In this document: positions 63,797 to 64,000 of the stretch, piece after piece
Numbering within the stretch: position 1 is the first letter of the stretch
How the letters are laid out: every line of letters begins with the position of its first letter
Origin: Escherichia coli
GTDB lineage: Bacteria; Pseudomonadota; Gammaproteobacteria; Enterobacterales; Enterobacteriaceae
DNA length: 64,000 nt
Reading direction: 5' to 3' (one strand)
Assembly (NCBI RefSeq): GCF_003334315.1
Contig: NZ_QOWR01000018.1
Translations under genes and position numbers: made by a program
Notes under the pieces: model-generated
Seen by the model: only the letters and a program-made list of their open reading frames with translations
What the model was told of the DNA's origin: nothing
Databases searched by the model: none

Positions 63797-64000
63797 GGTG
63801 ATGCTGCCAACTTACTGATTTAGTGTATGATGGTGTTTTTGAGGTGCTCCAGTGGCTTCTGTTTCTATCAGCTGTCCCTCCTGTTCAGCTACTGACGGGG
63901 TGGTGCGTAACGGCAAAAGCACCGCCGGACATCAGCGCTATCTCTGCTCTCACTGCCGTAAAACATGGCAACTGCAGTTCACTTACACCGCTTCTCAACC
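63797..64000 (+). mobile_element. insA: IS1 insertion sequence, left end and start of insA (continues beyond the window)
   Basis: Terminal repeat GGTGATGCTGCCAACTTACTGAT; insA begins GTG at 63852, translating [49 protein letters not shown]. Confidence 0.85.

Follow-up and report, generated by a model that had tools for sequence, protein, structure and literature searches.

The final 204 nucleotides of the window (the whole 64,000-nucleotide stretch of Escherichia coli DNA analyzed here) are the left end of an IS1 element, which enters left end first and in the same orientation as the preceding tail-fiber assembly gene, tfa. The element is a true insertion relative to uninterrupted relatives and a recent, lineage-specific addition to the prophage that carries it. 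According to the mechanism that we propose, an IS1 copy would have transposed, in the orientation of tfa, into AT-rich non-coding DNA 70 nt downstream of this gene, the target lying in the right arm of a Qin-type lambdoid prophage that resides in ydfJ and is largely intact. We consider it probable that this was a simple insertion, in which a most likely complete 768-bp IS1 would be flanked by a 9-bp GGGAGTATG duplication, with the rest of the prophage arm (~1.67 kb) and attR beyond it. Lying where two converging transcription units end, such an insertion would interrupt no gene and, judging from its position only, is probably neutral. The finding is real but ordinary, of a kind already known (a textbook IS1 in a well-known lambdoid prophage). 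It matters little, as it records one such event in a non-coding part of a nearly intact prophage.

The IS1 left end and its target

Positions 63797–64000 (+ strand) match the left end of the complete 768-bp IS1A of E. coli cS33a at 204 of 204 nucleotides and agree fully (100%) with the curated phage P1 IS1, which identifies an IS1 of the IS1A/phage P1 type, ended by the end of the source contig. The left terminal inverted repeat (IRL), GGTGATGCTGCCAACTTACTGAT, is present as an exact copy at 63797–63819 (+ strand). It occurs once in the window, on the + strand, and, with 0 matches expected in shuffled sequence, a chance match was rejected. IS1 is 768 bp long, is bounded by IRL and IRR, carries insA, encodes the insAB' transposase expressed via a −1 frameshift and generates target duplications of 8–9 bp (PMC12428005). 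In translation, the window contains the 5' part of insA (63852–64000, + strand), namely the first 49 codons with a GTG start, spanning the zinc-ribbon region. Counted along IS1, this start falls at position 56, in agreement with the cS33a IS1A annotation, and the domain PF03811 (Zn_ribbon_InsA) is recorded for the same insA open reading frame in the source contig (locus L012). The first-pass annotation had recognized an IS1 left terminal repeat starting 70 bp past the tfa stop; it was right about the element and exact to the base about its position, with the tfa stop at 63726 and IRL at 63797.

Two intact genes precede the element. The side tail-fiber gene stf (59918–63145, + strand) encodes a 1075-aa protein found in exactly this form in many E. 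coli assemblies, and tfa (63145–63726, + strand), identified from its open reading frame and a match to phrog_105 (E = 1.4e-98), encodes a 193-aa protein of the rare R193 variant. The 70 nt from the tfa stop to IS1 (63727–63796, + strand) form an AT-rich non-coding spacer that is identical in the uninterrupted relatives. The 3' coding end of tfa (63488–63686, + strand) is hit by the Rfam family IS009 (RF02111) at 212 bits, and two decayed tfa 3' remnants farther right in a relative (L004 14381–14456 and 15020–15211) are hit weakly, so that this "RNA family" falls on tfa coding sequence and what is left of it in the remnants. Since Rfam yields only these IS009 matches, to the tfa 3' end and its decayed copies, the idea of a known RNA at the target was rejected.

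The breakpoint is defined by relatives in which the site is uninterrupted. In the complete genome BS90R-A, the prophage can be aligned to window positions 30673–63796 without gaps, at 99.6–99.9% identity; the alignment ends exactly at 63796, the base before IS1, and different DNA follows. In the relatives CP53 and L004, the uninterrupted site reads ...GGTAGGGAGTATG^TTCTTGGATT... (^ marks the insertion point) or, at greater length, ...GCTATAGGTAGGGAGTATG^TTCTTGGATTAAGAATAAAAAATCGCCATGAAAGAGCTTCATGGCGA.... Based on this sequence and on the known property of IS1, the 9 bp beside IRL (63788–63796), GGGAGTATG, are the predicted left copy of a target-site duplication. A 201-nt probe across the site was run against 5,426 complete E. 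coli genomes; 821 have the site uninterrupted, and IS1 occupies this very nucleotide in two of the 5,426, cS33a and fM51a. The left junction was also detected in one IMG/VR contig, and it was found neither in metagenomes nor in GTDB species representatives. Contigs that bear the exact Stf protein have the site uninterrupted. A 65-aa protein encoded downstream of the site is widespread (18,196 blocks), too common to single out one assembly, and its rarer variant, that of strain PI12, was seen on uninterrupted-site contigs only.

The DNA hit by IS1 is non-coding. IS1 has a known preference for AT-rich targets, documented in the older literature. GC content is 34% within 50 nt on each side of the insertion site, and in uninterrupted relatives the 1.73 kb from tfa to a truncated ydfJ have 33.5% GC, compared with 49.5% for the window. 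At the insertion point, these relatives have no open reading frame of at least 60 aa, and the nearest annotated gene lies 750 nt away. Directly to the right of the site stands a minus-strand intrinsic terminator (L004 13926–13892; 11-bp stem, TTTTTTATTC tail), the insertion point being 12 nt beyond its T-tail. The site is therefore intergenic in the relatives, flanked by the tfa stop on one side and, on the other, by the terminator that ends a small converging transcript. Since the two transcription units converge on the site and both end beside it, a simple insertion would, as read from the sequence, break no reading frame and leave the terminator intact. The proposal that the insertion might truncate a downstream gene finds no support at this target, which is non-coding in the uninterrupted relatives.

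The terminator belongs to a compact unit (L004 13892–14239, minus strand), unannotated in the records examined, that comprises a promoter-like site, a 33-codon hydrophobic open reading frame (MKIQSKLIVLLNIIIAFILFELLAQKFGLSTLF) and the strong terminator itself, and that could encode a small membrane peptide or a toxin-like moron. Farther to the right, the relatives carry two decayed tfa 3' copies, the gene for the 65-aa hypothetical protein (minus strand), the truncated ydfJ and then ydfI. The tfa 3' relics look like traces of past exchanges of tail-fiber modules.

IS1 copies around the tfa end in other strains

Under a simple insertion, a complete 768-bp IS1 is expected to end in the IRR sequence ...AAGTTGGAGTCATTACC and to be followed on its right by GGGAGTATGTTCTTGGATTAAG...; the proposed query for contigs of GCA_003334315.1 (QOWR01) covering the right side of the element is CATTACCGGGAGTATGTTCTTGG. 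The predicted right junction, composed of the IS1 end, GGGAGTATG and the downstream DNA, has no contiguous match in the 5,426 complete E. coli genomes; its exact pattern gave none in IMG/VR, and a pattern allowing a duplication of 0–20 nt gave none in the JGI metagenomes. That the right junction of the window IS1 is matched in no collection searched, nor on contigs that encode the neighboring proteins, counts against a simple insertion. In favor of it, two nearby copies carry duplications: in strain G12, an additional IS1, at +242, is bounded by a 9-bp duplication, and HCP6S3 has an IS1 inside tfa with a direct duplication. The record of phage PhiR11_1_star, which starts with IS1, might have shown the complete insertion but was rejected: its IS1 is unrelated and sits in an integrase gene of lambda type.

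The absence of the simple right junction from all 5,426 complete genomes also speaks for another reading, which we regard as a possibility of some weight: that IS1 marks a breakpoint of rearrangement or deletion, the right-hand DNA having been replaced after insertion or by recombination with another IS1 copy. The last ~1.67 kb of the right arm and attR would then be lost, or the prophage would continue into some other region of the genome. The loss of attR would preclude precise excision, which bears on phage production by an intact-looking prophage. The strongest argument comes from cS33a, the one of the two same-junction genomes in which the right flank was read. Its left junction is identical to that of the window and is followed by a complete 768-bp IS1 with IRR, annotated as IS1A transposase with a programmed frameshift. 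To the right of this IS1 is unrelated DNA, CTTATTGGC..., with an AraC-family regulator and other unrelated genes, and the 9-mers flanking the element are mismatched (GGGAGTATG versus CTTATTGGC), without duplication. Because cS33a, the same-junction genome examined, has this unrelated right flank, a simple insertion at the site has never been observed directly.

Related arrangements were found in other strains. In 2023CK-01509, three IS1 copies surround a 662-bp fragment of the post-tfa spacer region, beside the same AraC gene as in cS33a, while in BS74R-D tfa is followed by ~630 bp of spacer, then by IS1 and the AraC gene. Both BS74R-D and G12 carry a second IS1 in direct orientation farther downstream, likely the precursor layout: recombination between two such direct-orientation copies would result in the cS33a arrangement. 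The suggestion that IS1 near this site could mediate rearrangements is thus borne out in other strains, by the mismatched flanks of cS33a and the three copies of 2023CK-01509. For the window itself, several points argue the other way. The rearranged examples sit at the lambda attachment site (ybhB–bioA side), not in ydfJ, and have a different tail fiber; cS33a and fM51a, both from one study, may go back to a single event; further IS1 copies of the region are simple insertions with duplications; and there is no sign of rearrangement within the window. Moreover, most genomic IS1 copies are simple insertions.

Taken over all strains, IS1 positions around the tfa end include the inside of tfa (HCP6S3 and AH01), +70, a right junction at +88, and +242, the last with the 9-bp duplication; a further, conserved copy lies beside the AraC-family regulator in the lambda-site prophages. 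The loci used for these positions were L004 13766–14051, L001 4602–5369, L030 3280–4047, L016 4353–5120 and L029 3669–4436. In HCP6S3, the copy in the tfa 3' end (L001 4584–5387) is bounded by an 18-bp direct repeat, CAACTGCACCGGATATTG, twice the usual 9 bp. All the distinct positions, at least five within ~700 bp, share the orientation of tfa; for five same-orientation events the two-sided chance is ~0.06, which is not statistically compelling. One identical junction occurs behind three different tfa/tail-fiber backgrounds. It is conceivable, if rather unlikely, that the post-tfa spacer is a preferred and orientation-biased landing site for IS1, and that the element serves as portable homology through which prophages residing in ydfJ and at the lambda attachment site exchange right arms or lose them, along with cargo such as the AraC-family regulator. 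Against this idea, shared junctions can spread by ordinary recombination, and the liking of IS1 for AT-rich DNA has long been known.

The contig end within IS1

Window position 64000 is the final base of the source contig (GCA_003334315.1, QOWR01000018.1). Locus L012, 10,856 nt taken from the end of QOWR01000018.1, is identical to the window throughout and stops at window position 64000. The exact Tfa protein of the window, with its rare R193 variant, is encoded on only eight contigs, the longest of which is QOWR01000018.1 (76,343 bp), and all three of these contigs that could be read break inside IS1. Two Logan contigs, from independent sequencing runs, end 28 nt into the element, and the IMG/VR contig with the identical junction ends 258 nt into it. 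As the contigs break inside IS1, these genomes likely contain further copies of the element. Breaks within multi-copy repeats are the usual behavior of short-read assemblers; an assembler stalling at such a repeat would end the contig, and hence the window, within IS1. The apparent truncation of IS1 at the window edge thus reflects a draft contig ending at a repeat. The case is mainly of value as a warning that the window stops where a contig stops; as this edge is broken at a repeat, the window says nothing of the DNA beyond.

These observations also bear on whether IS1 is complete. With 204 of 768 nt visible, and neither insB nor IRR within the window, the element might be a fragment only, either a solo left end or an internally deleted copy, and non-functional. 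We find this very improbable: no mismatch separates the visible part from active-type IS1, the cS33a copy at the same junction is complete, and four independent assemblies break within IS1, which fits an element identical to other genomic copies over at least the length of a read or k-mer. An assembly chimera, with IS1 wrongly attached to the contig end, was rejected and has a negligible probability, for although the junction lies 204 nt from the contig end, where misjoins are commonest, it recurs to the nucleotide in the NCBI draft, two Logan assemblies, the IMG/VR contig and two complete genomes.

The host prophage and comparison with known systems

The window begins in host DNA, from mdtJ/mdtI to rspB. 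The left boundary of the prophage is marked by an 11-bp attL core, TTATGGATTTC, at the end of a ydfJ 5' fragment (20435–20445), which recurs in relatives; a tyrosine integrase gene (20483–21778, minus strand) lies beside it. The same 11-mer begins the truncated ydfJ at the right end of the uninterrupted relatives (L004 15539–15549). Because this core is shared by attL and the truncated ydfJ of the relatives, the element is a Qin-type lambdoid prophage in ydfJ. IS1 lies ~1.67 kb inside the expected attR in ydfJ rather than at the edge of the prophage; the placement first proposed, at the fiber-distal end, needs correction in this respect.

The early region is intact, with integrase, excisionase, an 823-aa exonuclease, repressor, and cro-like, CII-like, O-like and Ren-like genes. 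The late genes annotated in BS90R-A, ydfU excepted, have equal length in the window and no internal stop; this set covers hokD, Q, holin, lysozyme, terminase, portal, a protease/capsid fusion, tail genes, J, lom, stf and tfa. Head and tail genes are intact in 17 of 17 cases, and so are the lysis genes, Q and xis. The only disrupted gene among the prophage genes compared with annotated BS90R-A is ydfU (DUF968; 31832–32881, + strand), which has a premature stop at codon 181 of 349. Hence the window lends no support to the idea that IS1 marks a partially decayed prophage: all checked structural, lysis and regulatory genes are intact, and the ydfU stop is the sole defect found.

The immunity/replication segment at 25534–30673 (repressor, cro-like, CII-like, O-like and Ren-like genes) is 93–96% identical to BS90R-A or cannot be aligned with it, and BS90R-A carries an AIPR-family gene at the corresponding position; from this comparison, the difference appears as a mosaic module swap. 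The closest complete genomes at attL are those of PI12, S171-1 and ES6, with 100% identity over 11.5 kb (window 14000–25500). In PI12 (locus L031), the one of the three that was examined, the prophage is without the terminase-to-tail-fiber block, has several pseudogenes, and the site is uninterrupted. The prophage is more complete in the window than in its nearest relatives, where, as examined in PI12, it is decaying. Three Rfam matches exceed the gathering score: DicF (25238–25289, minus strand), the sok antitoxin RNA (30693–30867, + strand) beside hokD, and a cspA-type thermoregulator (38539–38955, + strand) upstream of cspI.

When compared with the IS1 family, represented by K-12 IS1A and the IS1 of phage P1, the window copy has the same IRL, the same position and sequence of the insA start, all 204 visible nucleotides in common and likewise an AT-rich target. 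The visible part shows no difference, and the rest of the length, insB (DDE), the A6C frameshift site, IRR and the duplication fall past the end of the record.

The prophage shares with Qin of E. coli K-12 its integration site, as testified by the ydfJ 5' fragment at attL, and the right end of its relatives, a truncated ydfJ followed by ydfI, resembles that of Qin. The Qin markers dicB/DicF, hokD with sok RNA, rem, ydfU, cspI with its cspA-type thermoregulator, gnsB and tfaQ are common to the window, as judged from the Rfam matches and near-identical annotated relatives. Unlike Qin, the window copy keeps terminase, portal, head, tail, J, lom, stf, tfa, int, xis and immunity/replication genes; K-12 Qin is without these genes, as are the nearest complete relatives such as PI12.

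Finally, the prophages at the lambda site, in cS33a, 2023CK-01509, G12 and BS74R-D, have the same post-tfa spacer and IS1 orientation as the window, and in cS33a the left junction is identical as well. They lie beside ybhB/bioA and carry, downstream, a second IS1 and the AraC-family regulator.
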